In this document: piece after piece, positions 1 through 60,673 of the stretch
How positions within the stretch are numbered: position 1 is the stretch's first letter
Layout: the number at the start of each line of letters is the position of its first letter
DNA from: Bacteroidales bacterium
GTDB lineage: Bacteria; Bacteroidota; Bacteroidia; Bacteroidales; WCHB1-69
Reading direction: 5' to 3'
DNA: 64,000 nucleotides
Assembly (NCBI GenBank): GCA_045130275.1
Contig: JBGUPL010000013.1
Location: 3,900-67,899 of the forward strand
Notes under the pieces: model-generated
What the model was told of the DNA's origin: nothing
Databases searched by the model: none
What the model saw: only the letters and a program-made list of their open reading frames with translations
Made by a program: the position numbers and the translations under genes

Positions 1-1
1 C

Positions 2-475
2 GACCGGTTCAAAATGACCGTCAATGTGGACTACGGGACCAAAGTCCTGGCCGAGCAGCAGGCCGTACTCGACAACATCGAGAATTTTGTTCCGGATGTC
101 TATAACTGCCGCACTTTCGTGTTCTTGGATGAACTGCAGTTCCTGATTCAGAACAATCTGGCACGAGGCGGAGACCTTGACAATGCCATCGTTTTCGTTG
201 ACAAGGTGCCCGACAACAAGGTGCTGAACGCCCTCGGGGACTTCTTCCACAAGAAAGACATCACCGTCACCCCCGACCACATCTTGAATAACACTCATCT
301 CCGCCACCCCAATGAGCCGGCGCGCCACAAGCTGCTCGACCTCATCGGAGACCTTTATTTATTAGGGGTTCCGTTGCGCGCGGAGATCATCGCGAACCGC
401 CCCGGTCACTTCGCCAACACCTCCTTCGCAAAAAAAATATTGGAGAGTTGTAACTTTTTGATACAACCTGCGTAA
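2..475 (+). CDS. lpxC: UDP-3-O-acyl-N-acetylglucosamine deacetylase (LpxC), C-terminal part; the 5' end lies outside the window
   Basis: The frame is open from the window edge (same frame as ORF 14..475). It carries the LpxC signature RHKLLDLIGDLYLLG and a late NRPGH motif. The protein ends about 25 codons later with no FabZ-like extension. Confidence 0.8.
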   Translation, partial: DRFKMTVNVDYGTKVLAEQQAVLDNIENFVPDVYNCRTFVFLDELQFLIQNNLARGGDLDNAIVFVDKVPDNKVLNALGDFFHKKDITVTPDHILNNTHLRHPNEPARHKLLDLIGDLYLLGVPLRAEIIANRPGHFANTSFAKKILESCNFLIQPA

Positions 476-531
476 GAGTAAAATGATTATGAATTAATTT
501 TCATTGTCTTACATAGGTTAATGGTTTTGGA

Positions 532-559
532 CAGCGGTATGAACTACCGCTGTTTTTTT
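532..559 (+). terminator. Rho-independent terminator after lpxC
   Basis: Stem cagcggt / accgctg (532-538 / 546-552) followed by a T7 run. Confidence 0.5.
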
Positions 560-568
560 AAAATAATA

Positions 569-593
569 TTGGGGCGTATGCGATACGCCCCAA
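569..593 (-). terminator. Hairpin downstream of the NRPS gene
   Basis: Near-perfect palindrome ttggggcgtat-gcg-atacgccccaa, 12 nt past the NRPS stop. A T-rich tract follows it on the minus strand. Confidence 0.4.
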
Positions 594-604
594 CAGTTCT
601 CAAA

Positions 605-3600
605 CTAATCGAAGAATCCCAGTCCGCTGATAGCGCTCAACATGCGATCCACATAATCCCACGTGGTGGGCGACCATTTGAAGCCCAAACGATAGAGCAC
701 TTGCGTGGTGTACAGGTTGCTTATAGGCACTTCTGAAACTTTCATGCCGTGAGCCATATCCTGGTAAGCGAGCAGGCTGGAAAGCGTTTTGGCCTTTTGT
801 GGGTCATTGCCCGCACTCTCTACGGTAGAATTGTACTCCTCATCTTCCACAAGACGGATGTCCGTGCCCAGCTTGTTGAATCCGCTGAGAACGTCGCCGA
901 GGAACTGCGTGTGGCTGTTGTAGGAATGGAACAGGCAGCAATCCTTGGGAGTGGAACTGAGCAGGATGATGGTGTGCGCCACCTCATCGATGGGCGAGAA
1001 TTCCACCTTGTTTTCGTACAATGAATAGGGGAAACAGCCTAACATGTTGAAGACTTTGATGCGCCCCATGAAGGAGTTGGTGGAGAAGTTGATTTGGAAC
1101 TCACCGTCGCTGGTACGCGCCGCCAAGTTACCGACACGGATCACCTTGGCCGACAATCCTTTATCAACAATGGATTGCAGCACAATGCGTTCTGCCAAGA
1201 ATTTGGAATGGAGGTACTGGTTTCCGAGATATTGTCCGTCGAAGAGTCTTTGCTCGGTGAAAACGTAATCGGGTGCCATGGTGTCGTTGACATTGAGGCC
1301 ACTGGTGCTGTACGTGGAAATGTGTACCAAACGTGCGCCGGTCTTCAGACAGAGGTCAACACAACGTTGCGCACCACCCACATTCACATCTTCGATCTCC
1401 GTGCCTTCGCTGAAGTGTTTCACCACTGCGGCGCAATTGAACACCGTGTCGATTTTCACTTGAACAAGGTTGGTCAGGTCGTTGGTGACATCTCCAAGAA
1501 GAATGTGGAGGCGGTTGCCGAAGAGTTCGTCGTAGGTGGATTCGAAATAGTAGAACAGGAGGGTCTTCAGCCTGTGCTCAGCGGCTTCCATGTCCTTGTC
1601 GCGCACCAGACAGTAAATGTTCTCCGCATCCGACTGGATCAGTTCCTGCAGAATGTGAATGCCCAGGTAACCCGTGGCACCTGTGAGCAGTACATTGCCC
1701 AAAGATTGGCACTCACCTTTTCGGAAGCTATCCAATATATTGTTGCTCAACAAGTTGTTAATGCCAGAATAGTCGAATTTGGTGATATCGTCATCGTCTG
1801 TGGCGACAACCGTATTGCCCGAAACGAGCGCCGCAAGCTTTCTCGGGGTGGCATTGGCAAAAACATCGCCGTAGGCCACGTGCATTCCCGCCTTGTCGGC
1901 TTCGATGATGACACGAGTCACCATGAGCGAGGTGCCGCCGAGGTCGAAGAAGCTGTCGTTGGCACCGATCTTGTCCATGGCAAGAATCTCGCTGAAGATG
2001 CGGCAGAAGAGCGCTTCCGTGTCGTTGGCCGGTGCCACGTATTCGCGGTCGGAGGCCTGCATGAGGGGCGTCGGCAGCGCCTTGCGGTTCACCTTTTGGT
2101 TCTGGTTCAGCGGAATTCTGTCGATCTGCATCGTGGAGGCGGGAATCATGTACGGAGGTTTCCGCTCGCCGATGAAGTCGTTGAGCGCCTTGATGTCCAC
2201 CTGCTGGTCACTGACGATGTAGGCGGCGATGAACTTTCCACCATTCTCGTAATCAAAGGCTTGCACGGTGGCATCCTTGATACCCGGGAACTGGCGAATC
2301 ACGGCTTCCACCTCCTTGAGTTCGATGCGGAATCCGCGAATCTTCACCTGACCGTCTTTACGTCCCACAAACTGGATGTTGCCGTCGGGGAGGTAACGCA
2401 CGATGTCGCCGGTGCGGTAGACGCGGGCGTGTTTCGGGTCGTCGCTGAACGGATTCTTCAGGTAGGTTTCAGCGTTTTTCTCAGGACGGTTCAAATAGCC
2501 GCGACTCACCTGGGGACCGCTCACCCACAATTCGCCGGCCGCCCCGGGAGGCAATCTGTTAAACTGTTTGTCAACTATATAGAGCCTCAGATTGTCCAGC
2601 GGCTTACCGATGGGAATGTCCAACTCATAATCCTTCACCCAATAGTTGGTGGTGAAGATAGTGCACTCTGTCGGACCATAGCCGTTGTACATCTTGTAGT
2701 TTGTCGGAGGATTGAGGGCGGACAACTTCTCACCGCCCACTGCGAAACAGCGCAACGAGTGGTTCTCCACATTCGTCACAAACTGATAACCCACTTGAGT
2801 GGTGATGAACGAATGGGTGATGCCCTGCGTGTTGAAATAATTGTTGAGGTCGGGCAAATTGAGTCGTATGTCTTCCCCGATAATGTGGACGCAGGCACCG
2901 CACGTCAAGGCAGGATAGAGATCCATCATGCAGGCGTCGAAACCATAGCTGGCATACGCCGCCACCTTGTCAGCCGCCGTCAACCCATAGTGCCGCTGAT
3001 ACCAATGGCAGAAGGCCACTATGTTGCCGTGCTCCAGCTGACAGCCTTTCGGTGTGCCGGTCGAACCGGAAGTGTAGAGCATGATGAAAAGGCTTGACGG
3101 AGTGATGTCAGCCTTCACAGGAACCACCGCCGGCAGTTTGTCAATGTCTTTGGTCAACAGCACGATGCCGTGATATTCATCCACGATGGGACGCAACTCT
3201 TCATCGGCAATGAGCAGTTTGGCATTGGCGTCTTGCATCATGAAGTTCAGGCGTTCAGCGGGATAGCTCGGATCCAGAGGCTGGTAGGCGCATCCGGCCT
3301 TCAATACGCCTAACGAAACGATGGCCATCCATTCGCAGCGCGGAATCAACACCGAAACAATATCTTCGTTTTTAAGACCTTGCGCGACAATGTAACCTGC
3401 GATGCGCTCCGAGATCTCATCCACCTCGCGATAAGTGTATTTATGGTCGTGATAAACAACAGCAAGATTGTCAGGTGTTTGCTCCACTTGGTGACGGAAA
3501 AGCGAAACGATAGTCTGGGTGTCGTCATAGGGCACATCCGTCTGGTTGAAGCTGTCGAGCAAAGCGGTTTGTCCGGCATCCAGCAAAGAGACCTGCTGCA

Positions 3601-6600
3601 ACGCCATCTCGGGATGATGGATGAAAGCCTCAGCCGCAGTGCAAACCGACTGCGCCAGACTTTGCATCAGCTCGTGGCTGTAGCGACCATTGTCATATTC
3701 GACCACCACACCCGGCACGCCTTCTTTCTCTTGAATGTAGAAAGCGATGCGGAACTTCGGTATATTCAGCTCAAGAGACTCTATTTCAAGCTTTTGACCG
3801 TTGATTAGATATTGGTCTATCACTCCCATCTGATAGGCGAACATGATTTCGGCCGACAAGTCGTAATCGGCAGCGATCTGCGCGAAAGGATACTTTTCGT
3901 GAGTCAAAGTCTCGTCAAAGTGCTGGCTGGTCTCATTCAGGAAGTCCATCACCTTTTGATTGCCAATCTGGGCACTCAAGGCCAACGTGTTGACGAACAT
4001 GCCCGTAGTATTGCTTATGCGCAGATCGGAACGGCCGTTGCTGATGGTGGTGATGCAAATCTGCTCGTTGTTGGTGAAACGTGAGAGCGCATAGAAAACC
4101 GCCGCCAGGGTAAGGTGCGCAGGCGAGAGGTTGTTCTTCTTGCAGAATTCCTCCATCGCGTCGAAGTCCATCTTGCAGAAGACTTCGCTGACAGTACCTT
4201 GCTCCAACGGATTGGTCAAGTCGGCTGACACTTCAGTGGCCCCTTCCACATTGCCCAAACGCTGGTTGAAGAACTCCTTAGCCTCGATGTAACTCGACGT
4301 GCTTTCAGCCGCTTTCTCATCGACAACAAAACCGGCATAGCTGATGGCTTCAGCCTCGATTTCCTTGCCGTTCATCAAGTCGCACAACTGGTTCAGGAAC
4401 AGGTCGAGGGAACCGCCGTCGAAAATCAAGTGATGCACATCCGCCAAGAGGCAAACGTTTCGCTCGGTGGTGACGATTTCCATTCGGTACAACGGTCCTT
4501 GTCTCAGGTTGAAAGGTCTTACGAACTCCACCTTGTATTTCTCCAATTCCGCCTCGCTCAACTGACTCTTTGTAAGGGCAAGAGGTTGAGTTGTGTCAAC
4601 AATTTGCACGATTTCGCCAGCTTCGCTGTCAAAATGCACAAAAAACTGCGGGTGTGCCTTGATGAGGGTCTCGATGGACTTTTCAAGCAACTGCACATCG
4701 GTGTCTTTGGGGAGACGAATAAGGGTTGGGATGTTGTACACCGTGGAGGTGGGCTGCTTCATGCAATCGACATATACGCCCATCTGCGCGTAGGACAACG
4801 GAACATTATTTAGTTGAGAGTTAAGAGTTGAGAGTTGAGAGTTGTCGGTATTTGAAACAGTTTGGTTGGTGGCAGGAGCATTGAGGAGTTTGTTAAGAAT
4901 CTCATTCTCAATTGTTTGAATATTTCCTGCCTTAACTAAGGATTTGGAATCCACGGTGATACCGTATTTTTTGTTCAGCTGCACGGCCAGTTTGATGGCG
5001 GAGATGGAGGTAAGTCCAACGTAGCCGAGCACGGTGGTCACGCCAAAGTCTTTGGTGCCCACGATGCCCGCCACGATTTCGTGCAGTTCCTCTTCGAGGA
5101 TGTTCATCGGCACATGGCTTTCCTCCACGGTTTCCGCCTTTTTCTCGGGTCTCGGCAGGGCCTTCTTGTTGACCTTCTGATTCTGATTGAGCGGAATGCG
5201 GTCGATTTGCATCGTCACAGCAGGCACCATGTAAGGCGGTTTCTCATCCATGATGAAGTTGTTAAGGGCTTCGATGTCAATCTTCTCATCAGCAACAATA
5301 TAAGCTGCAATGAACTTGCCGCCGCCCTCTTCGTCAAAGGCTTGCACGGTGACATCCTTGATGCCTGGATACTGGCGGATGATAGCCTCTACTTCCGTGA
5401 GCTCGATGCGGAAACCGCGAACCTTCACCTGTGCGTCGCGACGGCCCACAAACTGGACGTTTCCATCAGGCAGGTAACGCACGATGTCGCCGGTGCGGTA
5501 GCAGCGACCCCAAGGGGTCTCCACGAAAGCCTCGGCAGTCTTCTCCGGACGATTCAGATAGCCTCGTCCCACTTGAGGGCCATTGACCCATAGCTCGCCG
5601 GCAGCGCCCACAGGTAACCTATGCCCGCATGCGTCCATAATGTACAGATGCATATTCTCCACAGCCTTTCCTATGGGGATATTCTGCAATTTCTCCTTGA
5701 CAGCAAATGCCGTCACATAACAGATACTCTCTGAAGGACCATAGCCGTTCAGGAACAAGTAGGGAGGAGGCGTGACATCCGCCAGTTTCTCACCGCCGGT
5801 GATAAAGGCCTTCAAGGAGTGATTGGCGATATCGTTGACAAATGAGCGGGCCACCTGTGTCGTCATGAACGTATGGGTGATGCCGTTCTGCTCAAAATAG
5901 TCGTTAAGCGCGAGGAGGTCAAGACGTATCTCCTCAGGAATGATATAGACGGTAGCACCCACTATGAGCGGCGGCCATAACTCAAGCAAACAAGCATCAA
6001 AACCGAAACTAGCATACGCTCCTATGTGACTATCCGCTTCTACATGCAGGGCATGTCGGTGCATGTGACTGAACGCCACCATATTCCGATGTTCGAGTTG
6101 ACATCCCTTGGGTACGCCTGTAGAGCCACTGGTGTAGATTAGCGTAAAGAGGCTCTCGGGCTTGGGTCCATCAAATGCATTGGATTCCTTCAGGTTCTTA
6201 ATGTCTTTCGTAAGCAGCACTTCACCCTTGTATTCATCCAAGATGGAACAAAGTTCCTCGTCGGCAATCAACAGTTTGGAAGCCGTATCCTGCATCATGA
6301 AGTTCAGGCGCTCCTTCGGATAGGTGGGGTCCAACGGCTGATAAGCACATCCTGCCTTCAGCACACCCAGCGAGGCAATGGCCATCCATTCTGAACGGGC
6401 TATCAGAATGGCCACCACATCCTCAAGTCCCAATCCTTTCGATGCAATATAACTTGCAATGCGGTCACTGATTTCATCCACCTCGGCGTATGTAAACCGC
6501 TTGTCCTTGAAGACCACAGCCGTCTTGTCGGGCGTTGCTTTGGCTTGACGGCGGAACAGCGATACGATGGTCTGCGTGTCGTCGTATGGATTATCGGTCT

Positions 6601-7873
6601 CGTTGAAACTGTCAAGCAAGTCGCACTGGCTCTTGGTGCAGATGTCAATGTCGCGCAGGAGGGTTTGGCTTAGAAAGCCCTCCAGAACCGCCTCATAACT
6701 CTCCATAAATTGGTCAATCAGCGTCTCGGAATATTCGTTGGAGCTGTATTCCGCTCTGATATGATATTTTTTGCCGACATAGAAAGCCATCAAATAAAGC
6801 GACACTCCCTCGTTGTGCTTGCGGAGCTGTATGGCCTCCATCGGTTTGCCCATCAGTTCGGTATAATCAAGTAAGAGGCCGTGCCATGCAAAGGTGGTGT
6901 TGATTTGCAGATTAAGGTCCGTCATCATGTCGGTATAGGAATAGAGATCGTGCTTGCGGCAGCCGATCATCTGTTCCTCGCCGGCTTTCAGGAAGTCTAG
7001 CACGGTGGTCTCTTCCGTGAACTTGGCGTAAACGGGCAACGTCTTCACAGTCATGCCAACGGAATGTTGGAATTTCCGTTCGGTGCGGCCGTTGAAGACC
7101 GTGGCGAACAGCGATTCATGCTCGTTGTTGTACTTGGCCAGCAGGAAGGAGTAGGCCGACGTGAAGAAAGTGCTTTTTTTGATGCCGTTGGTCTTGCAGA
7201 AAGCATCCACCCGATCCATGTCGGTGTCGAGAATGCGGAGTTTATTGGCGTCCGTGTGTTCGGGGATCTCCAAATCGGGCATAAGCTGGGTGAACGTGTC
7301 GCCGCAATCGAAGTTTTGGGCATACCACTGTTTGCCCTCTTCGAAGGCAGGTGTTTTGCGCATCTCAACTTCAGCAAGGGCAAGTTCCTGCATCGACATC
7401 TCCTCGGGGGCAAGCTCGACACCATTGTAAGCTTTTTCCACATCGTAAGTGATGATGTTGTACGAGGTGCCGTCGCTGATGATATGGTGCATGTCGAAGA
7501 GCCAATAAACATGTTCCTCGTCGCGCATCACTTTCGTATGAAACAGTCTGCCGCCAATGAGTTTGTAAGGCACGATGAATTTTTGCTTCTCGGCCTCGAT
7601 GTCCGTGAACGGCTCGACAGCAAGGCTGAAATCATCCCTTTCCTTAGTGTCAACGGATTGGACAGGTTCGCCTTCTTCATTCACCTCAATCCGGGTGAAA
7701 AAAACGGGATGCGCCTTTATCGTCGCCTCAATGGCGCGGCACAAACGGTCGGCATCGAGGCTGCCGTCAAAGACAAAAAGGAACGGGAGATTATAGAAGA
7801 CTTCATTCTCGTGCTCCATGCACTCGGCATAAATACCCAATTGCGATTGGGATAAAGGGGAAGTGTTTTTCAT
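605..7873 (-). CDS. Bimodular non-ribosomal peptide synthetase, C-A-T-C-A-T-R (terminal thioester reductase)
   Basis: 2422-aa ORF. C motifs: MHHIISDG (nt 7469-7489) and DVHHLIFDGGS. A motifs occur twice: LIYTSGSTGVPKG / MLYTSGSTGTPKG, GYGPSE / GYGPTE, YRTGD, GRxDxQVKIRGFRIEL and PLNQNQKVNxKALP. Carrier-protein serines sit in YVGLTSISA and FFDLGGTSLMV. The R domain has LLTGATGYLG (Rossmann) and YLHSK (YxxxK). Approximate domain coordinates in nt: C1 6580-7873, A1 5150-6575, T1 4888-5101, C2 3520-4800, A2 2068-3515, T2 1814-2047, R 608-1702. Confidence 0.95.
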   Translation of the reverse strand: MKNTSPLSQSQLGIYAECMEHENEVFYNLPFLFVFDGSLDADRLCRAIEATIKAHPVFFTRIEVNEEGEPVQSVDTKERDDFSLAVEPFTDIEAEKQKFIVPYKLIGGRLFHTKVMRDEEHVYWLFDMHHIISDGTSYNIITYDVEKAYNGVELAPEEMSMQELALAEVEMRKTPAFEEGKQWYAQNFDCGDTFTQLMPDLEIPEHTDANKLRILDTDMDRVDAFCKTNGIKKSTFFTSAYSFLLAKYNNEHESLFATVFNGRTERKFQHSVGMTVKTLPVYAKFTEETTVLDFLKAGEEQMIGCRKHDLYSYTDMMTDLNLQINTTFAWHGLLLDYTELMGKPMEAIQLRKHNEGVSLYLMAFYVGKKYHIRAEYSSNEYSETLIDQFMESYEAVLEGFLSQTLLRDIDICTKSQCDLLDSFNETDNPYDDTQTIVSLFRRQAKATPDKTAVVFKDKRFTYAEVDEISDRIASYIASKGLGLEDVVAILIARSEWMAIASLGVLKAGCAYQPLDPTYPKERLNFMMQDTASKLLIADEELCSILDEYKGEVLLTKDIKNLKESNAFDGPKPESLFTLIYTSGSTGVPKGCQLEHRNMVAFSHMHRHALHVEADSHIGAYASFGFDACLLELWPPLIVGATVYIIPEEIRLDLLALNDYFEQNGITHTFMTTQVARSFVNDIANHSLKAFITGGEKLADVTPPPYLFLNGYGPSESICYVTAFAVKEKLQNIPIGKAVENMHLYIMDACGHRLPVGAAGELWVNGPQVGRGYLNRPEKTAEAFVETPWGRCYRTGDIVRYLPDGNVQFVGRRDAQVKVRGFRIELTEVEAIIRQYPGIKDVTVQAFDEEGGGKFIAAYIVADEKIDIEALNNFIMDEKPPYMVPAVTMQIDRIPLNQNQKVNKKALPRPEKKAETVEESHVPMNILEEELHEIVAGIVGTKDFGVTTVLGYVGLTSISAIKLAVQLNKKYGITVDSKSLVKAGNIQTIENEILNKLLNAPATNQTVSNTDNSQLSTLNSQLNNVPLSYAQMGVYVDCMKQPTSTVYNIPTLIRLPKDTDVQLLEKSIETLIKAHPQFFVHFDSEAGEIVQIVDTTQPLALTKSQLSEAELEKYKVEFVRPFNLRQGPLYRMEIVTTERNVCLLADVHHLIFDGGSLDLFLNQLCDLMNGKEIEAEAISYAGFVVDEKAAESTSSYIEAKEFFNQRLGNVEGATEVSADLTNPLEQGTVSEVFCKMDFDAMEEFCKKNNLSPAHLTLAAVFYALSRFTNNEQICITTISNGRSDLRISNTTGMFVNTLALSAQIGNQKVMDFLNETSQHFDETLTHEKYPFAQIAADYDLSAEIMFAYQMGVIDQYLINGQKLEIESLELNIPKFRIAFYIQEKEGVPGVVVEYDNGRYSHELMQSLAQSVCTAAEAFIHHPEMALQQVSLLDAGQTALLDSFNQTDVPYDDTQTIVSLFRHQVEQTPDNLAVVYHDHKYTYREVDEISERIAGYIVAQGLKNEDIVSVLIPRCEWMAIVSLGVLKAGCAYQPLDPSYPAERLNFMMQDANAKLLIADEELRPIVDEYHGIVLLTKDIDKLPAVVPVKADITPSSLFIMLYTSGSTGTPKGCQLEHGNIVAFCHWYQRHYGLTAADKVAAYASYGFDACMMDLYPALTCGACVHIIGEDIRLNLPDLNNYFNTQGITHSFITTQVGYQFVTNVENHSLRCFAVGGEKLSALNPPTNYKMYNGYGPTECTIFTTNYWVKDYELDIPIGKPLDNLRLYIVDKQFNRLPPGAAGELWVSGPQVSRGYLNRPEKNAETYLKNPFSDDPKHARVYRTGDIVRYLPDGNIQFVGRKDGQVKIRGFRIELKEVEAVIRQFPGIKDATVQAFDYENGGKFIAAYIVSDQQVDIKALNDFIGERKPPYMIPASTMQIDRIPLNQNQKVNRKALPTPLMQASDREYVAPANDTEALFCRIFSEILAMDKIGANDSFFDLGGTSLMVTRVIIEADKAGMHVAYGDVFANATPRKLAALVSGNTVVATDDDDITKFDYSGINNLLSNNILDSFRKGECQSLGNVLLTGATGYLGIHILQELIQSDAENIYCLVRDKDMEAAEHRLKTLLFYYFESTYDELFGNRLHILLGDVTNDLTNLVQVKIDTVFNCAAVVKHFSEGTEIEDVNVGGAQRCVDLCLKTGARLVHISTYSTSGLNVNDTMAPDYVFTEQRLFDGQYLGNQYLHSKFLAERIVLQSIVDKGLSAKVIRVGNLAARTSDGEFQINFSTNSFMGRIKVFNMLGCFPYSLYENKVEFSPIDEVAHTIILLSSTPKDCCLFHSYNSHTQFLGDVLSGFNKLGTDIRLVEDEEYNSTVESAGNDPQKAKTLSSLLAYQDMAHGMKVSEVPISNLYTTQVLYRLGFKWSPTTWDYVDRMLSAISGLGFFD
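4813..4844. repeat. Heptanucleotide tandem array (GTTGAGA/GTTAAGA, about 4.5 units) inside the NRPS T1-C2 linker
   Basis: Direct reading gives gttgaga gttaaga gttgaga gttgaga gttg. On the coding strand this encodes NSQLSTLNSQLN. Confidence 0.9.
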
Positions 7874-7923
7874 ATCTTTTTTGTTTCTCTATTTATTGCT
7901 ATTCAATTATTAGGTTCGGCTAA

Positions 7924-7950
7924 CAGCCAATAGCCAACGACCAATAGCTA
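7924..7950. repeat. Short heptamer array (GCCAATA/GCCAACG/ACCAATA) in the porin-NRPS spacer
   Basis: Three to four imperfect 7-nt units overlapping the porin stop codon. This is the reverse complement of the GCTATTG family seen at 41374-41444. Confidence 0.6.
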
Positions 7951-9291
7951 TTGTTTTTTCTTGTCATTCCACGGCAAGGTGAATATCGTCGGGTTGACAG
8001 TCAACATCACCCACCCCCAGTGCAATCGGCGGGTTTGGGAGACCTGTTGGAGAATCTCCATCGTCTCTGTGCCTTGCATGTAGGAATATCCTGCCGACAC
8101 CCTGACAAATTTCGCGAACGAATAGCCCACATTGATCACGAATTCATGACCCAACGATTTTTTCAGTTTGTTAAGATCGGCTGAAATGGCGTAGTAATGA
8201 TAGGCAGCGTCGATTCTCAGGCCTCTGACGGGATTGACGACGCCTCCGGCATAGAGGTTCTGCAAGCCAGGGGAGAAATTGTTCAAATAATTGTCCATAT
8301 AGAAGAAATCCATGGCACCATAGAATTCGTGGTGCGAGCCGAACAACGGGCAGAATGCCCGCGCCTTTTCGTGGAATATGAGGCCGAATCCTCCGTTAAT
8401 CCTGACGGGGAATTGATCACCGCTCAGGTAATCATATCCGGCAAAGAGGGTGTATATTTTGCTGGGCGTAACCTGAAGCTTCGCACTTCCCATGAAAGCG
8501 TCCAGCTTCATTGCGTTTTCCTCTTTTCCCATCTGATAATAGAAAGAGCCTTCCAATGTCACAATGCTGGGTTTCAATTTCACGTAGGCGCCGAACAGTT
8601 GCTGAAAGAAGGTTGTATCCGGAAAATTGGAGTTCTTGCTCTGAACCCCGATATTCATGCCAAGCAGGGACATCCCGAACAGTGACTTCGGCGTCTCGTA
8701 GTGATACCAAAGAGTCTGCATGGTCTTGTAAGGCTGGATTCCGCCGGCATAGTAAGTGGTACCTTGTGAAATGTTTTCCGAATTCTGGTTGTAGGCGAGG
8801 AGGATGTGCAGTTTGTGGCCATGACCTTCGTAGCCTAATTTCAGCGCATCGTGGGTGGGCGCAGTCATCGTCCAGTCATCGTAACCCAGGATACGCTCGT
8901 CATCGTATTCCAACGTCTGACGGCCGAGCTTTGCGAAAAGCCCTGTCTTTGTGTGTCTCATCGAGAGCCAACCCTCGGAAAGACTCAGGTTGCCACCGGC
9001 TTGTCCCCAAACCCCGGAAAACTGAGGCGAAAGCCTCAATTCGAACCAGTCGGCCCGTTTGTATCCGAGGTTAAGCCTGTACTGTCCCATGATGAAGTGG
9101 GACATCCGCTCCTTCTCGTTTTCTTCCTCGTCATCCGGATTGAAACCTCCGACACGGATTTCCCCACGGGTGTTGATTTTGGCGTCAATGGTGAATTCGT
9201 TGTCCGCCTCTTGCGCCTGCAGATTCAGGGCTGTCATCATTATCAAGGCTAAGAAGCACCAACGGAAGATTGAGTTAAGGTTTGTCTGCAT
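7948..9291 (-). CDS. Secreted outer-membrane beta-barrel (porin-like) protein; family not assignable by eye
   Basis: 447-aa ORF with the signal peptide MQTNLNSIFRWCFLALIMMTALNLQA|Q. The rest of the sequence has the alternating aromatic/Gly-rich strand pattern typical of OM barrels. It lies 74 nt upstream of the NRPS. Confidence 0.65.
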   Translation of the reverse strand: MQTNLNSIFRWCFLALIMMTALNLQAQEADNEFTIDAKINTRGEIRVGGFNPDDEEENEKERMSHFIMGQYRLNLGYKRADWFELRLSPQFSGVWGQAGGNLSLSEGWLSMRHTKTGLFAKLGRQTLEYDDERILGYDDWTMTAPTHDALKLGYEGHGHKLHILLAYNQNSENISQGTTYYAGGIQPYKTMQTLWYHYETPKSLFGMSLLGMNIGVQSKNSNFPDTTFFQQLFGAYVKLKPSIVTLEGSFYYQMGKEENAMKLDAFMGSAKLQVTPSKIYTLFAGYDYLSGDQFPVRINGGFGLIFHEKARAFCPLFGSHHEFYGAMDFFYMDNYLNNFSPGLQNLYAGGVVNPVRGLRIDAAYHYYAISADLNKLKKSLGHEFVINVGYSFAKFVRVSAGYSYMQGTETMEILQQVSQTRRLHWGWVMLTVNPTIFTLPWNDKKKQ

Positions 9292-9310
9292 ACGCTATAA
9301 TTTCAATTAT

Positions 9311-9895
9311 TCACTTGATACTGTTGTCAAAACCAGTATGGAATTTTGCGATAGAGAAAACGTAATGTTGTGTATTGATGGTTTCGATCGAATATTTCTC
9401 TGAATTCATCAGAACATTTTTCATATTGTTGCGGATACCTTCGCCCGTGAGTTTCAACACAGCCTCTTTCCGGGTCCAGAGTGTCAGAAAAGCCTCATCG
9501 GTGTTTTGCGACGCCCGGATCCAATCCTGTTCCTCATCGTTCATAGTATAGTCGATCAATTCAGGGCTGACATGGCGCACAACCTCCACATCTGCGCCTA
9601 CAGGTTCGCTGTCTATGACGCATAGCGCCACTGTCTTGGAGTGGCTGAGACTGAAATGGATATCAGGGTGCTGCTCGAGAAAAGGTTTTCCGCTATCGGC
9701 CATGACGAAAACAGGATTCTCCTGGATGCCATGTTCCATCCAAAGCCCTTTCTTCAGCAGAAGATATGCCGCTAACGAGAGCTTTTGGTCGCGCTCATGC
9801 CGGAACCGCAGTGCCTCCTCGCGCCGCTGCACCGACACTTGAGCCATCGCGAAGTCGATGTCAAGCACATCCACCCGGTCATTGACATAGACCAT
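9311..9895 (-). CDS. Sfp-type 4'-phosphopantetheinyl transferase
   Basis: 194 aa with the PPTase motifs GKPF...FSLSHS, VGADVE and WTRKEAVLKLTGEG. Confidence 0.85.
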   Translation of the reverse strand: MVYVNDRVDVLDIDFAMAQVSVQRREEALRFRHERDQKLSLAAYLLLKKGLWMEHGIQENPVFVMADSGKPFLEQHPDIHFSLSHSKTVALCVIDSEPVGADVEVVRHVSPELIDYTMNDEEQDWIRASQNTDEAFLTLWTRKEAVLKLTGEGIRNNMKNVLMNSEKYSIETINTQHYVFSIAKFHTGFDNSIK

Positions 9896-9897
9896 CG

Positions 9898-10203
9898 TTA
9901 GTCAATCACCTCAAAAATATCGTCCAACTTGGTCATCTTGAAGACCTGCATCACATCGGGGCAGACGTTCCTCAGGTACATTTTTCCACCTTTAGCGGAG
10001 ACTTCTTTTCTAATTTTCAAAAAGATACGCAAACCGGAGCTGCTGATGAACGGCATCTTTCCACAGTCGAGAATGATGTTGCGATCCGCATGTTGCAGCA
10101 ACGGATCAATGGTGTCCGCTATTTGTTGTGCGGCTACAGTGTCCAACCGTCCGTCAAAAACGGCAGTAGTGGTGTTTCCCTCTTCTGTGATATTAATATT
10201 CAT
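9898..10203 (-). CDS. STAS-domain protein (anti-sigma-factor antagonist, RsbV/SpoIIAA-like)
   Basis: 101 aa. It has the typical STAS layout with the phosphorylatable-serine motif in PFISSSGLRIF. Its stop lies 2 nt from the PPTase start codon. Confidence 0.8.
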   Translation of the reverse strand: MNINITEEGNTTTAVFDGRLDTVAAQQIADTIDPLLQHADRNIILDCGKMPFISSSGLRIFLKIRKEVSAKGGKMYLRNVCPDVMQVFKMTKLDDIFEVID

Positions 10204-10267
10204 AACCTTCTAAAATATTGTATTTCAATAAATTATTTATCGTTGAAAAAATAATCAAAGCACAGCG

Positions 10268-10275
10268 CAAAGATA
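10268..10275 (-). promoter_or_regulatory. Candidate Bacteroidota -7 box (TATCTTTG) for the STAS-PPTase-porin-NRPS operon
   Basis: Plus strand caaagata equals TATCTTTG on the minus strand, matching the TAnnTTTG consensus. It lies 65 nt upstream of the STAS ATG. Confidence 0.5.
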
Positions 10276-10313
10276 ATGTTTTTCTTTTAAACCTCAAAAA
10301 CAACCTTGATTTT

Positions 10314-10376
10314 CTATTGCCTGTTGCCTATTGCCTGTTGCCTATTGCCTATTGCCTGTTGCCTGTTGCCTGTTGC
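10314..10376. repeat. Heptamer tandem array, 9 units of CTATTGC/CTGTTGC
   Basis: Nine contiguous 7-nt units counted directly. The array covers the last 21 codons and the stop of the sensor gene. Confidence 0.95.
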
Positions 10377-12434
10377 CTGTATCTTCATCCTCAATACATT
10401 CTGCCCGTTTTCGTGCGCATATTCCACCTGATCCATAATCGTCCTGATAAGATGGATACCTAAGCCACCGATCTGCCGTTCCTCTAATGGAACGTCGAGG
10501 TTGACCTCTTTTTTTTGCAAAGGATTAAACGGCGCGCCTTCGTCAATGAGGGTGGCACAAATCTGCCCGTCCATAACCTCCAGGGAAAGCTCCACGGTGC
10601 CCTTTTCACCTTCAGGATAAGCATACATGATGACATTGGTCGCGGCCTCCTCCAGCGCGAGGTTCAACTGCGGCAACAACGACATGTCAAGATTCTCTTG
10701 CTTGAAATAATCGTTCAGGAAAGGTTCCAACTTGTAGAGTTCCTCGATATTGTTGCTCATGCTCAGGGTATTATTGCCGCCTTTCGTGAAACGGACGGCC
10801 AGCATGGTGAGGTCGTCGCTCTGCTCGGCTTCCCCCACAAAGGTCTGTACCGCCAGCCGCATCTTTTCGACCTTCTCTTGAGCTGTCGCTCTGCAGTACT
10901 CCGTTGCAATTTCCAACGCTCTCGACTCCCCGAAAAGTTCCTTTTGGGTGTTCTCGGCTTCGGTCAAGCCGTCGGTGTAGAGGAACAGGGTGTCTCCGGG
11001 CAAAAGGGCCACCTCGCAAGACGTGTATTCAGCATCAGCATCAACCCCAAGGATAAGAGAAGGCGCGCTGTCCAAAAACTTCACCTTCCCGTCACGGATG
11101 ACAATCGGCGGATTATGCCCGGCATTGCAATAACGGATCATGCCTGTGGATAAATCCATGACACCTATGAACATTGTGATGAACATAATGTCGGGGTTGT
11201 TGTCGCTGATTGAGGCGTTGAGCGCCTGCATGATGTGTTCGGGGCGGCTGTCGCGGGCGGACAGGGTGCGGAACAGACTATGGGCGATGGCCATCAACAA
11301 TGCCGCCGGCACCCCTTTGCCGGAGACATCCCCGATGCAGAACAACAGCTGGTTGTCATGCACATAATAGTCGTACAAATCGCCGCCGACAAACTTGGCT
11401 GGGATCTGCAACCCCTTGATATCGATGGTTTTGATGGATTTCGTCAACGTTTCGGACGGCAACATCGCCTGCTGGATGTTTCTGGCGATGGAAAGCTCAT
11501 CCTCGATATGCTGTTCCTTCAAACGCACCTCGTTAAATTTCCACAAATTCTGCACCGAACGGTACGCAATGAAGAAGACCGTCAAAACGCCTGTGAAGGC
11601 CAAAATAGAGAAAAACAGCGTTGCCATCCTTAACCGATGGTACATGTCGGCGTTGGAAATCGTAATGGTAAGGACCATGTCCTTGCCATCAATAGCCTCT
11701 GAGAAGACATGATATCTGCCTTTCGTCTTGGGCACTGACGGTGGCGCCACCAGTACAGAACCGTCTGTGGTGACTAATGTACAGAAACTATGAGGATAGA
11801 GCTTTATGTTGCTGACAATACTGGCAAGCGTGTCGAGGGTGACATCCGTGCAGATAACGCCTACCGTTTCGCCTGTACTGTCGCTGATCGGGAGACAGTA
11901 GGAAATCATGTATGCCATCCCGCCGGCATTGTCGTAGTAGGGAGCACTCCAAAAGCCTTTCTCCGACGCCAGTCCTTTCTTGAACCAGTCCATTTGGAGA
12001 TAGTCATGTTCCTCACTCCCCAACTGGGTGACGAACAAGGTGTCGAGATTCTTCCGATGGCCGGCATAGGTTTCATACCATCGACCCTCATTGGGATAGT
12101 AGTTTTCTTTGAAGGCGACGCCTGCACCCATAATGTGTGAACTGGACTCCACCGTGTGATATGCAATGTCGTACATTGCTTCAGGGTCGTCAATCATGTA
12201 TTCGGCCATCGGCCCAATGGAGTTCACAACGGTTTCTATCTTACCCAAACATCTGTTAATCGAAGCTTCAGCGTTCTTCAAGGTCATTTCCACCCGTTTT
12301 TCAACTGACCTGACTTCCTGTTTCCTAATATAAAAGTAGTACTTGATTCCAACCAAAATCAAGGCCAGAACGGCAATGAGAATCTTCAGGAGTTCTTTCT
12401 TTGCGAATTGGTATTTGTCAATAGGATAGGACAT
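10314..12434 (-). CDS. Membrane sensor combining a periplasmic Cache-like domain, a PP2C (SpoIIE/RsbU-type) phosphatase and a C-terminal HATPase (RsbW/SpoIIAB-type kinase)
   Basis: 706 aa. There are two TM segments (about aa 17-37 and 272-292) around an extracytoplasmic domain of roughly 230 aa. PP2C motifs: GGDLYDY, GDVSGKGVPAALLMA (nt 11293-11334) and LYTDGLTEA...DDLTMLAV. Kinase motifs: LEEAATNVIMYAY and GGLGIHLIRTIMD. The C-terminal tail QATGNRQQAIGNRQQAIGNRQ is encoded by the repeat array. Confidence 0.85.
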   Translation of the reverse strand: MSYPIDKYQFAKKELLKILIAVLALILVGIKYYFYIRKQEVRSVEKRVEMTLKNAEASINRCLGKIETVVNSIGPMAEYMIDDPEAMYDIAYHTVESSSHIMGAGVAFKENYYPNEGRWYETYAGHRKNLDTLFVTQLGSEEHDYLQMDWFKKGLASEKGFWSAPYYDNAGGMAYMISYCLPISDSTGETVGVICTDVTLDTLASIVSNIKLYPHSFCTLVTTDGSVLVAPPSVPKTKGRYHVFSEAIDGKDMVLTITISNADMYHRLRMATLFFSILAFTGVLTVFFIAYRSVQNLWKFNEVRLKEQHIEDELSIARNIQQAMLPSETLTKSIKTIDIKGLQIPAKFVGGDLYDYYVHDNQLLFCIGDVSGKGVPAALLMAIAHSLFRTLSARDSRPEHIMQALNASISDNNPDIMFITMFIGVMDLSTGMIRYCNAGHNPPIVIRDGKVKFLDSAPSLILGVDADAEYTSCEVALLPGDTLFLYTDGLTEAENTQKELFGESRALEIATEYCRATAQEKVEKMRLAVQTFVGEAEQSDDLTMLAVRFTKGGNNTLSMSNNIEELYKLEPFLNDYFKQENLDMSLLPQLNLALEEAATNVIMYAYPEGEKGTVELSLEVMDGQICATLIDEGAPFNPLQKKEVNLDVPLEERQIGGLGIHLIRTIMDQVEYAHENGQNVLRMKIQATGNRQQAIGNRQQAIGNRQ

Positions 12435-12458
12435 AGCAGGCTATTATTTACAATGCGA

Positions 12459-12466
12459 CAAAAATA
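12459..12466 (-). promoter_or_regulatory. Candidate -7 box (TATTTTTG) for the sensor gene
   Basis: Plus strand caaaaata, 25 nt upstream of the ATG at 12434. Confidence 0.5.
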
Positions 12467-12493
12467 CAATAATTCCACGAGCATCGCCCAACT

Positions 12494-14419
<1,926 letters not shown>

Positions 14420-14452
14420 TATGGGAGACAGGGTTCAACGTTCAAGGATCGA

Positions 14453-15631
14453 TTAGGATTGCCGCAGCAACTCCATCGGATCCTCCTTCTGGTTTTCTTC
14501 ATAGGAAACTTTGCCGATATTCAAGAGCATACCTACGGCACATCCCGAGACAAACAGGGAGGCGCCGCCGCTGCTGATGAACGGGAGCGTCTGTCCCGTG
14601 GTGGGCAGGAGCTCGCAGTTCACCCCGATATGCACCAGTGCCTGGCAGGTGAACCAGAAGCCGATGCCGAAGGCCAACAGCCGCCCGAATGTGCCTGTCG
14701 CCTCCTTGGCGATTTTCCGGGATCTATAAAAGATGATGAGATAGGCCAGCAATACCGCCACTCCCACCACAATGCCTGTCTCCTCAAACAAAGACGCGAA
14801 GGCATAATCGGTCTCCTTCTCCGGCAACCGGTTTTTGATGACCCCTTTGCCGGGACCCGCGGGATTGAAGCCCGACCGGGCGATGGCCGTCCGCGCCAAA
14901 ATCATCTGATCGCCATAACCGTTGGTGTTATCCTTGGTGACAAAATACTCAAGTCTGTTGATGAACGTCGCCATTCGCCCGAACTTCGACTGTTTCTCCT
15001 CACTGAGATTCACCGCGACAATCATGGCCACGATCAACAATGCGGAGACGATCCCGAGCATTCCGGCAATGTCACGCAATTTGAACCCTCCAATGAAAAA
15101 CAACACCAGACCTGTTACAAAGAGGATAATGGCCGTGGACATATTCATCGTAGCTATGCACAAACAGAAAAACGAGAGCAACAGAAACAGGTACCGGACA
15201 TTGTTCGGGGTGATTTCCCCATGATTATGGTACAACCGCGCAATATAATTGGCGATATAGAATATTATCAAGAACCCAATAATGTAGAAAGTCTGCACGT
15301 CACGGCCAAAAATGGTGACGCCGCGCACGGCTTGTGAAAGCATGGTCAGCACCAACAGCACCACAGCCAAAAGGAGCAGGAACGGAGCCGCCACCCCAAC
15401 CTTCCGATAATCGAATTGGTACACCAAGAACATCCCGACATAGCCGAACAACAGATGTTTGAGATGCTGGAGAACCACGGCTCCGCGCATGCTGTAAACC
15501 ATCACGATGGATATAGCCGTCAGGAAAACCACAAGGATCAGGATCACCTTGTCGGTTTTCAGCGTAATCCGCCGCAGGAAAGACATCTTCGGCAACGGGG
15601 AAACGGTCGGGCTTGAGGTATCTGCATCCAT
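14453..15631 (-). CDS. ftsW: SEDS-family peptidoglycan glycosyltransferase FtsW
   Basis: Polytopic membrane protein with LPFISSGGASL near the C-terminus, in the dcw position after murD. The start is set at internal ATG 15631 (MDADTSS...) because the longer ORF would overlap the upstream gene by 122 nt. Confidence 0.85.
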   Translation of the reverse strand: MDADTSSPTVSPLPKMSFLRRITLKTDKVILILVVFLTAISIVMVYSMRGAVVLQHLKHLLFGYVGMFLVYQFDYRKVGVAAPFLLLLAVVLLVLTMLSQAVRGVTIFGRDVQTFYIIGFLIIFYIANYIARLYHNHGEITPNNVRYLFLLLSFFCLCIATMNMSTAIILFVTGLVLFFIGGFKLRDIAGMLGIVSALLIVAMIVAVNLSEEKQSKFGRMATFINRLEYFVTKDNTNGYGDQMILARTAIARSGFNPAGPGKGVIKNRLPEKETDYAFASLFEETGIVVGVAVLLAYLIIFYRSRKIAKEATGTFGRLLAFGIGFWFTCQALVHIGVNCELLPTTGQTLPFISSGGASLFVSGCAVGMLLNIGKVSYEENQKEDPMELLRQS

Positions 15632-15641
15632 AACAACACTG

Positions 15642-16199
15642 TTAAAGTTGTGCAACAGAAGCTTTGAAACGTTCGCCGCGTTCCCTGTAGGTGACCTGGC
15701 CGTTGCCGTGGACGCCCGGAGCATACAACACCGCATCGCCTTTCTGGCAGGAATAGAATGCATGGTTCACTGCATCCTCCATGCTCATGGTCATCATCAC
15801 CGGAATGCCCAACTCCGCAATTCTTTGGTAAACATCAATGCTGTACACGCCTTGCAGCACCACCTCCTTGACCTTTTGTTGCGCCTCTTTCAGGACATCC
15901 TCGCTCAAAAGGTCCGGGGAATCGATGTTGGTGATCCATACGGTGGGTTTGGTCATGGACTGCAACGAATACCAAACGGCATTTGCCGTGGTGGAACGCG
16001 CATCATCGATGAAATCCACGCCCGCGAAGCTCTTGACGTGCTCCAATTTGTGGGCGCTGCCCTCGAAATCGGACAACGATTCGGCTATATTTTTCTGACG
16101 CAGGCGGATCAGCTGTTCTGACAAAGTCCCAACCCGTGGATTGGATGTCTCTCTGGCTTGTTCGAACAAGCGAAAACTGTTATTCTTCTTTGTAGGCAT
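15642..16199 (-). CDS. MurD C-terminal-domain-like protein (185 aa) occupying the murD slot; ligase N-terminal and ATPase domains are absent
   Basis: FEGSAHKLEHV...GVDFIDDARSTTANAVWYSLQSM resembles the MurD pattern F.G..HR.E.V...GV.FINDSKATN. However, NDSKATN, the GG.DKG motif and the SP.CASFD motif are replaced by DDARSTT, TNIDSP and APGVHGNG. Only 62 nt separate this ORF from the mraY stop. Confidence 0.6.
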   Translation of the reverse strand: MPTKKNNSFRLFEQARETSNPRVGTLSEQLIRLRQKNIAESLSDFEGSAHKLEHVKSFAGVDFIDDARSTTANAVWYSLQSMTKPTVWITNIDSPDLLSEDVLKEAQQKVKEVVLQGVYSIDVYQRIAELGIPVMMTMSMEDAVNHAFYSCQKGDAVLYAPGVHGNGQVTYRERGERFKASVAQL

Positions 16200-16260
16200 A
16201 ATGGTTTGTGGTTTGTTATTTATTGTCTAAGGTTTTGATTTTAAGTCCAGGCCCGAAGTT

Positions 16261-17523
16261 TTATCGGATTTTCAGTGTCGCAATGGCCAACACCGCAAGG
16301 AGCATGCTGACCACAATGAACCGTTGCACGATTTTCGATTCATGCATCCCTTTTTTCTGAAAATGGTGATGCAGCGGCGACATCAGGAATATACGCCGGC
16401 CTTCGCCGTAACGTTTTTTGGTGTATTTGAAATAAGACACTTGCATAATCACCGACAGGGACTGAGCCAGATAAATCCCACACAGGATCGGGATAAGCAG
16501 CTCTTTGCGGATGATGATGCAGGATACTGCCACGATACCGCCGAGGGTGAGGCTTCCTGTGTCGCCCATGAACACCTGCGCCGGATAGCAGTTCCACCAA
16601 TAGAAACCGATACAGGCGCCGATCACGGCCGAAACGAAAATCACCAACTCCCCGATATTGGGGATATACATGATGTTCAGATAATTGGCGAAAATCACAT
16701 TTCCCGACACATAAGCGAGAATGGCTATACCAACAGCAACAGAGGCGGTTGTACCGGTCGCCAGGCCATCCAGCCCGTCAGTGAGGTTCGCCCCGTTGGA
16801 GACTGCCGCGATAATGAAAACGATTATCGGGATGAACAACAGGAACGACCACTTCCCGGATTTGTCACCCATCCAACGGGTAAGTGCAGCGTAATCCATC
16901 TCGTGGCTTTTCACAAAAGGAATCGTGGTCTTGGAAGAGTGATGGGGCTCATCGAAAAGTTTGGGTGTGTGCGCGTTACCTTGATTCTCCACTTGGAGCA
17001 ACTCCCCGGATGTGACTTGGGTCACTTGCTGCTTCTGGACAGTTTTCTCGCAAATGACAGCACTCGGATGAAAATACATGACCGCGCCGACCACCAAACC
17101 AAGCAGAATCTGTCCCAACAACTTCTTGCGTGGCGAAAGTCCTTCCTTGTTCTTCTTGAAAACCTTGATATAGTCATCGGCAAATCCCAGCATTCCTAAC
17201 CACAGAGTGGTGAAAATCATCAAAATGACATAGATATTCCGCAATTCACAAAGCAGAAGCACCGGAACGAGTATGGCGGCAATGATGATGAGCCCGCCCA
17301 TCGTGGGGGTGCCGGCTTTCTCACTCTGCCCCGCCAGTCCCAACTCTCTGACACTCTCCCCTATTTGCTTTTTTTTCAGGTATTTGATGAAAAACTTACC
17401 AAAGAAAATAGAGATGATCAATGCCAGTACAAAGGCGGAAACGGAACGGAAGGAAATATATTGGAAGACACCCGTGCCGGGGTATCTTTGTGTATGCAGC
17501 CAAGAGAATAAATAATATAGCAT
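16261..17523 (-). CDS. mraY: Phospho-N-acetylmuramoyl-pentapeptide transferase MraY
   Basis: 420-aa polytopic membrane protein with GTPTMGG, ADDYIKV, NLTDGLDGLA and PLHHHF motifs. Confidence 0.92.
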   Translation of the reverse strand: MLYYLFSWLHTQRYPGTGVFQYISFRSVSAFVLALIISIFFGKFFIKYLKKKQIGESVRELGLAGQSEKAGTPTMGGLIIIAAILVPVLLLCELRNIYVILMIFTTLWLGMLGFADDYIKVFKKNKEGLSPRKKLLGQILLGLVVGAVMYFHPSAVICEKTVQKQQVTQVTSGELLQVENQGNAHTPKLFDEPHHSSKTTIPFVKSHEMDYAALTRWMGDKSGKWSFLLFIPIIVFIIAAVSNGANLTDGLDGLATGTTASVAVGIAILAYVSGNVIFANYLNIMYIPNIGELVIFVSAVIGACIGFYWWNCYPAQVFMGDTGSLTLGGIVAVSCIIIRKELLIPILCGIYLAQSLSVIMQVSYFKYTKKRYGEGRRIFLMSPLHHHFQKKGMHESKIVQRFIVVSMLLAVLAIATLKIR

Positions 17524-17534
17524 ATCTTTCTGAT

Positions 17535-19007: not shown

Positions 19008-19019
19008 TGTCTTTTTAAA

Positions 19020-19068
19020 GGTTAATGGTTAAAGGTTAATGGTTAAAGGTTAATGGTTAAAGGTTATA
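19020..19068. repeat. Heptamer array (GGTTAAT/GGTTAAA alternating, 7 units) filling the ftsI-murE spacer
   Basis: Units counted directly, with one further degenerate unit extending to 19075. Confidence 0.95.
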
Positions 19069-60665: not shown

Positions 60666-60673
60666 AGTTCAAG

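Follow-up and report, generated by a model that had tools for sequence, protein, structure and literature searches.

A predicted partner-switching-type phospho-relay encoded within a nonribosomal peptide synthetase gene cluster of uncultured rumen Bacteroidales

We analyzed a five-gene block on the minus strand of a 64,000-nucleotide (nt) stretch of Bacteroidales DNA (the whole stretch is referred to below as the window). The block encodes a nonribosomal peptide synthetase (NRPS) together with a membrane sensor and a STAS protein. Its predicted gene content points to a compact NRPS cluster, from a rumen member of the Bacteroidales not yet in culture, that carries its own partner-switching-type phospho-relay. 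The open reading frame (ORF) list, Pfam and NCBIfam place the five genes with the coordinates, strands, spacings and domain contents that a first-pass annotation, made from the letters, had given:

605-7873, minus strand: NRPS, 2422 amino acids, with the domain order condensation-adenylation-thiolation, repeated, then reductase (C-A-T-C-A-T-R; ORF list and Pfam)
7948-9291, minus strand: outer-membrane (OM) barrel, 447 amino acids, with a Sec signal peptide; a predicted AlgE/OprD-like channel
9311-9895, minus strand: Sfp-type phosphopantetheinyl transferase (PPTase), 194 amino acids, with its ATG 2 nt past the STAS stop
9898-10203, minus strand: single-domain STAS protein, 101 amino acids, first cistron of the putative operon
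10314-12434, minus strand: sensor, 706 amino acids, with the domain order dCache-PP2C-HATPase_c_2

Read from the sensor towards the NRPS, the genes are separated by 110 nt (sensor/STAS), 2 nt (STAS/PPTase), 19 nt (PPTase/barrel) and 74 nt (barrel/NRPS). The flanks of the cluster are housekeeping genes according to Pfam, with ABC-F and FtsW on the upstream side and a convergent LpxC on the other.

The sensor matches, in order, the Pfam families MCP-like_PDC_1/dCache_1, SpoIIE (PP2C; 186.8 bits) and HATPase_c_2 (92.7 bits). Two hydrophobic segments, predicted transmembrane (TM) helices at residues ~17-36 (TM1) and ~270-292 (TM2), enclose a periplasmic dCache domain (~41-265), and the cytoplasmic part comprises a PP2C/SpoIIE phosphatase (residues 360-549) and an RsbW-type HATPase_c_2 Ser kinase (residues 561-684). 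Pfam detected no receiver domain (REC; Response_reg) in the sensor, and its input is the dCache domain between the two TM segments. The sequence matches of the sensor in the PDB are SiaA, Rv1364c, dCache receptors and, best for the kinase domain, RsbW and SpoIIAB. In an alignment of 50 distinct sensor homologs, with identities to the window sensor down to 29%, the PP2C motifs VGGDLxD, GDxSGK, LYTDGLTEA and SDDLT and the kinase N/G1/G2 boxes EExxxN, DxGxxF and IGGLGI are kept in at least 95% of the sequences. The predicted kinase has the motifs of the RsbW/SpoIIAB-type GHKL class, and the metal-binding Asp residues expected of a PP2C phosphatase are present.

We considered whether the dCache domain belongs to the amino-acid sensors (dCache_1AA). 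For PctA, we take the ligand residues R126, W128, Y144 and D173 to be the amino-acid-binding motif. In the alignment with PctA the sensor retains W150, Y166 and D197 and has M148 at the position of R126; the assignment was rejected because this canonical, carboxylate-binding Arg is missing.

The STAS protein scores 70.5 bits against Pfam STAS and 73.6 bits against TIGR00377 (anti-sigma factor antagonist superfamily; cut-off 53.45), and its best sequence matches in the PDB are SpoIIAA and RsbV. It is a single-domain STAS protein with a conserved candidate phospho-Ser in the expected DS*SG-like loop. The FISSSGL serine context, described as intact in the first-pass annotation, is indeed present, and within the motif I-x-S-S-G-L-R-I the SSGLRI core is kept at 90% or more across 68 distinct STAS sequences that fall into two deep clades. 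Ser55 is the predicted phospho-acceptor because it aligns with Ser58 of SpoIIAA. The conservation of the kinase, PP2C and STAS acceptor motifs indicates purifying selection on the acceptor site as well as on the two enzymatic activities.

The NRPS contains the Pfam domains Condensation, AMP-binding and PP-binding twice, followed by a terminal NAD_binding_4 thioester reductase. Its core motifs are intact (HHxxxDG twice, TSGSTGxPK twice, NGYGP(T/S)E twice and TGATGYLG), as expected of a generic NRPS. Against the NCBIfam equivalog model for AusA it scores 1491 bits (cut-off 2500) with residues 352-2409 covered, and it is not of the AusA type by that measure; an additional N-terminal condensation domain is present. 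The PPTase matches ACPS (PF01648, 52.3 bits) and AASDHPPT_N (PF22624, 30.4 bits), as an Sfp-type enzyme should, and is AusB-like at a score below the NCBIfam cut-off (85 versus 225). The barrel has weak Pfam matches to Alginate_exp and OMP_b-brl; against PF13372 it reaches 25.4 bits in total (cut-off 25.2), with no single stretch passing. An AlphaFold2 model built from 36 homologs (predicted local distance difference test score 64, predicted template-modeling score 0.65) suggests an 18-strand AlgE-like fold. Foldseek searches with this model returned AlgE at the top, followed by OprD/Occ channels, at template-modeling scores of ~0.55 and identities of ~12%.

Homologs with the architecture of the sensor number in the thousands in Bacteroidales, typically at ~65% identity. 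A scan with the sensor, using one genome per GTDB species, gave 22 loci, all from metagenome-assembled genomes of uncultured rumen or gut Bacteroidales or Prevotellaceae (loci are cited by L numbers). Eighteen of the 22 contain sensor orthologs at 59-68% identity. The STAS gene adjoins the sensor in all 18 (77-88% identity to the window protein) and the barrel is present in all 18 (60-82%), the PPTase is found in 11 (~56-62%), and the NRPS in 14 (75-93% in most), in 13 of them directly after the barrel. In the fourteenth (L020), the contig ends in the barrel and a second NRPS stands between sensor and STAS; in its twin, L046, the barrel is followed by an NRPS. L004 has the order sensor-STAS-barrel-NRPS, and L002 has sensor-STAS-PPTase-barrel-NRPS within a NrdD/NrdG flank, so the sensor-STAS-NRPS association holds across flanks as different as ABC-F/FtsW and NrdD/NrdG.

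The same association was seen from the NRPS. A metagenome scan with an alignment of the N-terminal condensation domain as query gave 80 loci, in which gene order was established by blastp of all ORFs; the counts that follow refer to the 45 loci whose upstream DNA extends for 4.6 kb or more. The STAS gene lies upstream on the same strand in 36/45, STAS and sensor occur together in 32/45, and the barrel is present in 26/45. Twenty of the 32 NRPS-linked sensors form a deep second clade, 29-44% identical to the window sensor and with STAS proteins at 34-42%, which indicates that a second, deeply diverged sensor/STAS clade (clade II, the window belonging to clade I) is also attached to this NRPS family. 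The layout sensor-STAS-NRPS, lacking the barrel, occurs in at least 10 loci. Other arrangements are sensor-STAS-barrel-NRPS, sensor-STAS-MATE-NRPS with or without a following barrel, and sensor-NRPS2-MATE-STAS-barrel-NRPS. One locus has two sensor-STAS pairs in tandem (L100), one has an amino-acid symporter between STAS and NRPS (L108), and one has a monomodular C-A-T-R NRPS (L113). The gene that follows STAS, in 76 cases, is the barrel (35), the PPTase (21), the NRPS (17), a MATE gene (2) or a second sensor (1, at L100); the median distance from the STAS stop to the next start is 8.5 nt, and it is 7 nt or less in 37 cases.

The first-pass annotation had suggested a wiring between the partner-switching module and the NRPS operon and had proposed a neighborhood analysis of C-A-T-C-A-T-R clusters as a check. 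Orthologous and distant clusters mostly carry both STAS and sensor, so that the refuting outcome named by the annotation, orthologous clusters without these neighbors, was not observed. Recurrent adjacency, varied flanks and layouts, and conserved motifs strongly support a functional wiring of the predicted module to the NRPS operon, although NRPS-less loci and the 9/45 NRPS loci that lack the module show that the pairing is not obligatory. Because the pairing recurs across many divergent genomes, the phospho-switch very probably controls production of the NRPS peptide.

Candidate transcription signals of the block, all on the minus strand, are:

12459-12466, minus strand: Bacteroidetes-type -7 box TATTTTTG, 24 nt upstream of the sensor ATG
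10268-10298, minus strand: putative STAS-NRPS promoter, with TTTG at 10295-10298, a 19-nt spacer and TATCTTTG at 10268-10275
567-595, minus strand: intrinsic-terminator-like hairpin and T-run, with a 13-bp stem containing 6 GC pairs, 10 nt past the NRPS stop

The putative STAS-NRPS promoter, 64 nt upstream of the STAS ATG, looks housekeeping-type, matching the arrangement TTTG-N19-TAnnTTTG that we take to be the bipartite Bacteroidetes primary-sigma promoter consensus. A motif search found no good -33 TTTG ahead of the sensor -7 box. Both TAnnTTTG boxes reported by the first-pass annotation were recovered by motif search. The box at 10268-10275 is not the only one of the block, as had been stated, since another occurs at 9912-9919 within the 3' end of the STAS gene. 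The latter coincides with the conserved codons for D-I-F-E, 16 nt ahead of the PPTase ATG, and as a candidate internal promoter it was set aside as probably a coding coincidence. The whole window contains 31 TAnnTTTG boxes versus 29.7 expected by chance; any signal is therefore carried by position and not by frequency. A box lies within 160 nt upstream of STAS in 17/23 sequences, the window included. The other 6/23 have no box ahead of STAS and mostly short spacers, which suggests that STAS is co-transcribed with the sensor in those genomes; the median spacer from sensor stop to STAS start is 67.5 nt. The hairpin at 567-595 is likely the end of the transcription unit. No terminator-like site was found between the sensor stop and the STAS start, the consensus matches inside the PPTase and NRPS genes are only weak, and the sole strong terminator follows the NRPS. 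At E<=0.1, Rfam gave no riboswitch or leader RNA match in window positions 1-16000.

Partner-switching circuits release a sigma factor or other partner, and the first-pass annotation had reported no sigma or anti-sigma gene in the window. This stood for the part of the window that we checked, where ten small and medium-sized ORFs have no sigma domains. A candidate sigma/anti-sigma pair at 35183-36867 proved to be guanylate kinase and an HI0933-like flavoprotein, and other small ORFs considered as sigma candidates were MraZ, a pseudouridine synthase and similar proteins. The Pfam neighborhood lists of related loci contain no sigma-70-family gene.

With no sigma gene found nearby and a housekeeping-type promoter, a non-transcriptional output of the switch is favored indirectly. 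We lean, modestly, towards an NRPS cluster with its own phospho-relay in which STAS would control output below transcription initiation. A ligand on the dCache domain would shift the kinase/phosphatase balance and thereby set the phosphorylation state of STAS Ser55, the unphosphorylated protein being the active form. STAS would then control assembly-line output below transcription initiation, in a manner resembling SypA of the Vibrio fischeri syp locus and All4160 of Anabaena; by analogy, SypE/SypA-like control is the most likely mechanism. The protein likely binds a cytoplasmic pathway component, namely the NRPS, its carrier domains or the PPTase, and the OM channel, like the MATE pumps of sister clusters, would probably be an export accessory and not a STAS target. 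A more specific version is possible but on balance doubtful: unphosphorylated STAS could act as a signal-controlled subunit of the assembly line, docking on a cytoplasmic component such as the PPTase, the reductase, a carrier domain or the starter condensation domain and licensing synthesis when the dCache domain reads a periplasmic ligand. If so, an NRPS would for the first time be seen under post-translational control by an environmental signal, with STAS resembling an MbtH-like partner that can be turned on and off. We also considered autoinduction, in which the sensor reads the cluster's own product. The idea gained no support, since adenylation-domain codes do not track the sensor clade, the same codes occurring with clade I and clade II sensors; this is a weak test, based on a PheA reference.

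Several observations weigh against this interpretation. Five loci have an apparently intact sensor-STAS-barrel, with or without the PPTase, and no adjacent NRPS (L001, L006, L010, L015 and L021, the last decaying); L001, with the order sensor-STAS-PPTase-barrel, occupies the ABC-F...LpxC site of the window. In L024 (Prevotellaceae) the sensor-STAS pair stands alone, with a sensor 38% identical to that of the window and of the same architecture; sensor matches more distant than this one have no kinase domain. The module is missing from 9/45 NRPS loci, several of them in multi-NRPS clusters, and four NRPS loci have STAS with no adjacent sensor. The metagenome loci show redundancy and share descent; all counts are therefore descriptive and do not represent independent events. 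A fusion of STAS to an NRPS (Rosetta-stone) was absent among the 150 best representatives, in which the long matches were multi-STAS proteins. STAS phosphorylation, co-transcription of the operon and any STAS target are predictions. Probes for RpoE and SigF, which were single sequences run with no positive control, gave no match in the window or in 114 loci totalling 1.74 Mb (6,688 ORFs), a weak negative; a sigma factor or other target may lie elsewhere in the genome, of which the window covers 64 kb.

The last point bears on a canonical partner switch with transcriptional output. Here the HATPase_c_2 domain of the sensor would sequester a sigma or transcription factor encoded elsewhere, and unphosphorylated STAS would displace that factor, which would drive the STAS-NRPS operon in a positive feedback like that of rsbV in the sigB operon. 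In favor of such a switch, the domains make up the canonical RsbU/RsbW/RsbV trio, the STAS gene directly follows the operon promoter, sensor and STAS probably share a transcript in the 6/23 sequences that have no box and mostly short spacers, and our view of the genome is confined to 64 kb. Against this, no sigma-family gene was seen in the window or near the 114 loci (with weak probes and Pfam lists), the promoter fits the housekeeping arrangement well, and Bacteroidota are not known to possess sigma-B or sigma-F-type sigma factors. We regard a transcriptional output as unlikely, though a serious contender. An improbable alternative is that no dedicated link exists: the sensor-STAS pair would regulate envelope or nutrient functions in general and stand beside the NRPS by shared ancestry in one Bacteroidales lineage. 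The pair without NRPS at L001, L006, L010, L015 and L024 fits such a scenario, as do the barrel alone or with the PPTase only (L112, L114), trimodular NRPS relatives with a MATE pump that lack the sensor-STAS module (L029, L030), and the shared phylogenetic inertia of samples that are all rumen or gut Bacteroidales-like. Adjacency nevertheless spans two STAS/sensor clades ~35% identical to each other, with different flanks and at least six layouts; STAS appears translationally coupled to whichever biosynthetic gene comes next; and in L020 and L046 the additional NRPS-MATE pair went between sensor and STAS and not elsewhere.

The first-pass annotation had also raised the alternative that STAS gates export through the co-encoded OM barrel. 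STAS and barrel are adjacent in 18/18 clade-I loci, even those without an NRPS. However, no signal peptide is predicted on STAS, which should be cytoplasmic, and the barrel has a Sec signal and a modeled 18-strand AlgE-like fold, which would put the two proteins in different compartments. At least 10 sensor-STAS-NRPS loci have no barrel, and the barrel is found without STAS. Gating of the barrel by STAS is accordingly very unlikely. Control of NRPS output below transcription initiation remains our preferred reading, and it has precedents in other phyla.

The closest known system is SypE-SypA of Vibrio fischeri, in which the STAS gene lies in the controlled locus, no sigma factor is involved and the output is post-transcriptional (PMC4517449, PMC10120452, PMC12826045). 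SypE, like the window sensor, unites an RsbW-type Ser kinase with a PP2C phosphatase in a single chain that acts on a STAS protein of one domain, and the SypA gene sits inside a biosynthetic locus. SypE is a cytoplasmic kinase-REC-PP2C protein with phosphotransfer input, whereas the window sensor has the order dCache-TM-PP2C-kinase and a predicted periplasmic ligand input; syp is an exopolysaccharide locus of Proteobacteria, whereas the window contains an NRPS locus of Bacteroidota. The Bacillus systems RsbU/RsbW/RsbV-sigmaB and SpoIIE/SpoIIAB/SpoIIAA-sigmaF share the three domain families and the phospho-serine motif with the window. They differ in that for the window no sigma partner was found, kinase and phosphatase are fused in a membrane protein, and the neighbors are biosynthetic.

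The SiaABCD system of Pseudomonas aeruginosa likewise has a membrane-anchored PP2C and a kinase, together with a small protein that serves as the phospho-switch. For the phosphatase part of the sensor, SiaA ranks first in both the PDB and NCBIfam, at 75 bits versus an equivalog cut-off of 700. There, the unphosphorylated switch protein activates an enzyme directly; the kinase is separate and the output enzyme is a diguanylate cyclase. Rv1364c of Mycobacterium tuberculosis also has PAS and STAS domains in its single chain and is linked to sigma-F. This protein (PDB 3ke6), the second-best match of the sensor, has PP2C and an RsbW-like kinase in one chain, as does the sensor, and has no NRPS context. 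In Anabaena PCC 7120, the HenR/All4160 STAS phospho-switch is reported to regulate a biosynthetic enzyme directly (bioRxiv 10.64898/2026.04.08.717354). It differs from the window in that it serves the synthesis of polysaccharide, is encoded by genes scattered over the genome, and has its STAS domain within a larger protein. STAS-only proteins have been reviewed (PMC8256260) and provide precedent for STAS control of biosynthetic machinery without a sigma factor.

On the biosynthetic side, AusA/AusB (aureusimine) shares with the window the A-T-C-A-T-R core, the terminal reductase and a dedicated Sfp-type PPTase, and provides the best NCBIfam models; the window NRPS differs in its extra N-terminal condensation domain, and the scores fall far below the equivalog cut-offs. 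The literature searched reports no partner-switching genes for AusA-type or other reductase-terminated gut dipeptide NRPS clusters. AlgE and OprD/Occ channels are the best structural matches of the modeled barrel, and alginate genes are absent around it. The first-pass annotation was not aware of a described NRPS under such control; our literature search likewise found none, nor any account of partner switching in Bacteroides or of a STAS or partner-switch module at an NRPS cluster. The case that comes closest, TciR, is a REC-RsbW-like protein that affects the NRPS pigment indigoidine, is not cluster-encoded and has no STAS partner (PMC12826045). What is new here is a putative non-sigma partner switch with dCache-PP2C-kinase input, an NRPS as output class and a new phylum; the parts themselves are of the canonical RsbU/RsbW/RsbV type.

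NRPS clusters abound in rumen and gut Bacteroidota and have been cataloged without mention of sensor/STAS regulators (PMC8241843). Almost nothing is known about when they switch on, and most are silent in other hosts. The natural signal that induces the cluster may be received by the dCache domain, a candidate receptor, and the pathway might become locked on by an S55A substitution in STAS or by deleting the sensor. For signaling, the module represents a large family in a different phylum that joins a short list of sigma-less partner switches. The co-encoded genes are defined candidate STAS targets, and could help to find what such STAS proteins, SypA among them, bind.

The extra N-terminal condensation domain makes N-acylation of the NRPS product probable, and the product is probably an N-acylated dipeptide aldehyde or alcohol. 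Adenylation specificity codes differ among NRPS orthologs that are otherwise 75-90% identical: those of the first adenylation domain are DALTIGGICK, DAMALGLVCK, DAEQLGGCYK and DCMAIAGILK, and those of the second are DAMGAGGIFK and DCMAIAGILK. This variation suggests a combinatorial family of dipeptide products. Three loci (L020, positions 12066-20836, L046 and L028) have a second bimodular NRPS, 49% identical, and a MATE exporter between sensor and STAS; the result is a two-NRPS cluster bracketed by the regulator pair, and NRPS-MATE-NRPS arrays are common in the family.

The sensor changes much faster than the rest of the cluster. Among clade-I loci the mean pairwise identity is ~63% per domain, with the dCache domain at 59-60%; identities are 77-88% for STAS, 75-93% for the NRPS and 90-95% for the neighboring ABC-F. 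The 3' end of the sensor gene contains one further feature:

10317-10380, minus strand: tandem heptamer array, 9.1 copies of CAGGCAA/T, detected by Tandem Repeats Finder (TRF)

The array encodes the variable C-terminal tail of the sensor, QATGNRQ(QAIGNRQ)x2, reaches the stop codon, and sits ~40 nt ahead of the STAS promoter. The sensor homolog P0001, which is 99% identical, is shorter by exactly 14 amino acids, or 6 heptamer units, which indicates that heptamer copy number is polymorphic between strains. Short tandem repeats also occur in the sensor-STAS spacer at L004, L015 and L019. The array and the spacer repeats may have contingency or spacing effects on STAS expression.

At positions 14453-23185 of the window the cluster borders a cell-division/cell-wall (dcw) region, with the ABC-F ATPase between them. 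FtsW and MraZ were identified in this region by Pfam, and MraY, MurE and a penicillin-binding-protein-like (PBP-like) gene are suggested by synteny with L001 and L004. In the lineage of L001, L010 and L021, the ABC-F...LpxC site has no NRPS and an extra ORF of 528-534 amino acids lies between ABC-F and the sensor. L021, without an NRPS, has a frameshift in the sensor gene and a barrel gene in pieces; this natural experiment favors a functional link in that it fits decay after NRPS loss, with assembly error as an alternative. L114, from a prevalent species, has only PPTase-barrel, beside genes for a pseudouridine synthase, an M28 peptidase and an amino-acid kinase. These neighbors match gene types at window positions 59394-62566, which places PPTase-barrel at a different chromosomal site in that species.

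Foreign insertions were observed inside three clusters, between sensor, STAS, barrel and NRPS genes that are all retained: Fib_succ_major (Fibrobacter succinogenes major domain) genes in L016 (10543-15060), type I restriction-modification genes in L048 (6023-9486), and unannotated minus-strand ORFs in L058 (4952-9282). Finally, L031 (8001-25117), which has a Treponema-like context with DUF2715 and MACPF neighbors, contains a 59%-identical A-C-A-C-A...R NRPS and a PPTase. The NRPS lies 5.4 kb from a dCache-HAMP-PP2C-HATPase sensor that is followed by STAS. This locus was not counted as evidence; it may reflect a sensor-STAS/NRPS link beyond Bacteroidales, or coincidence.

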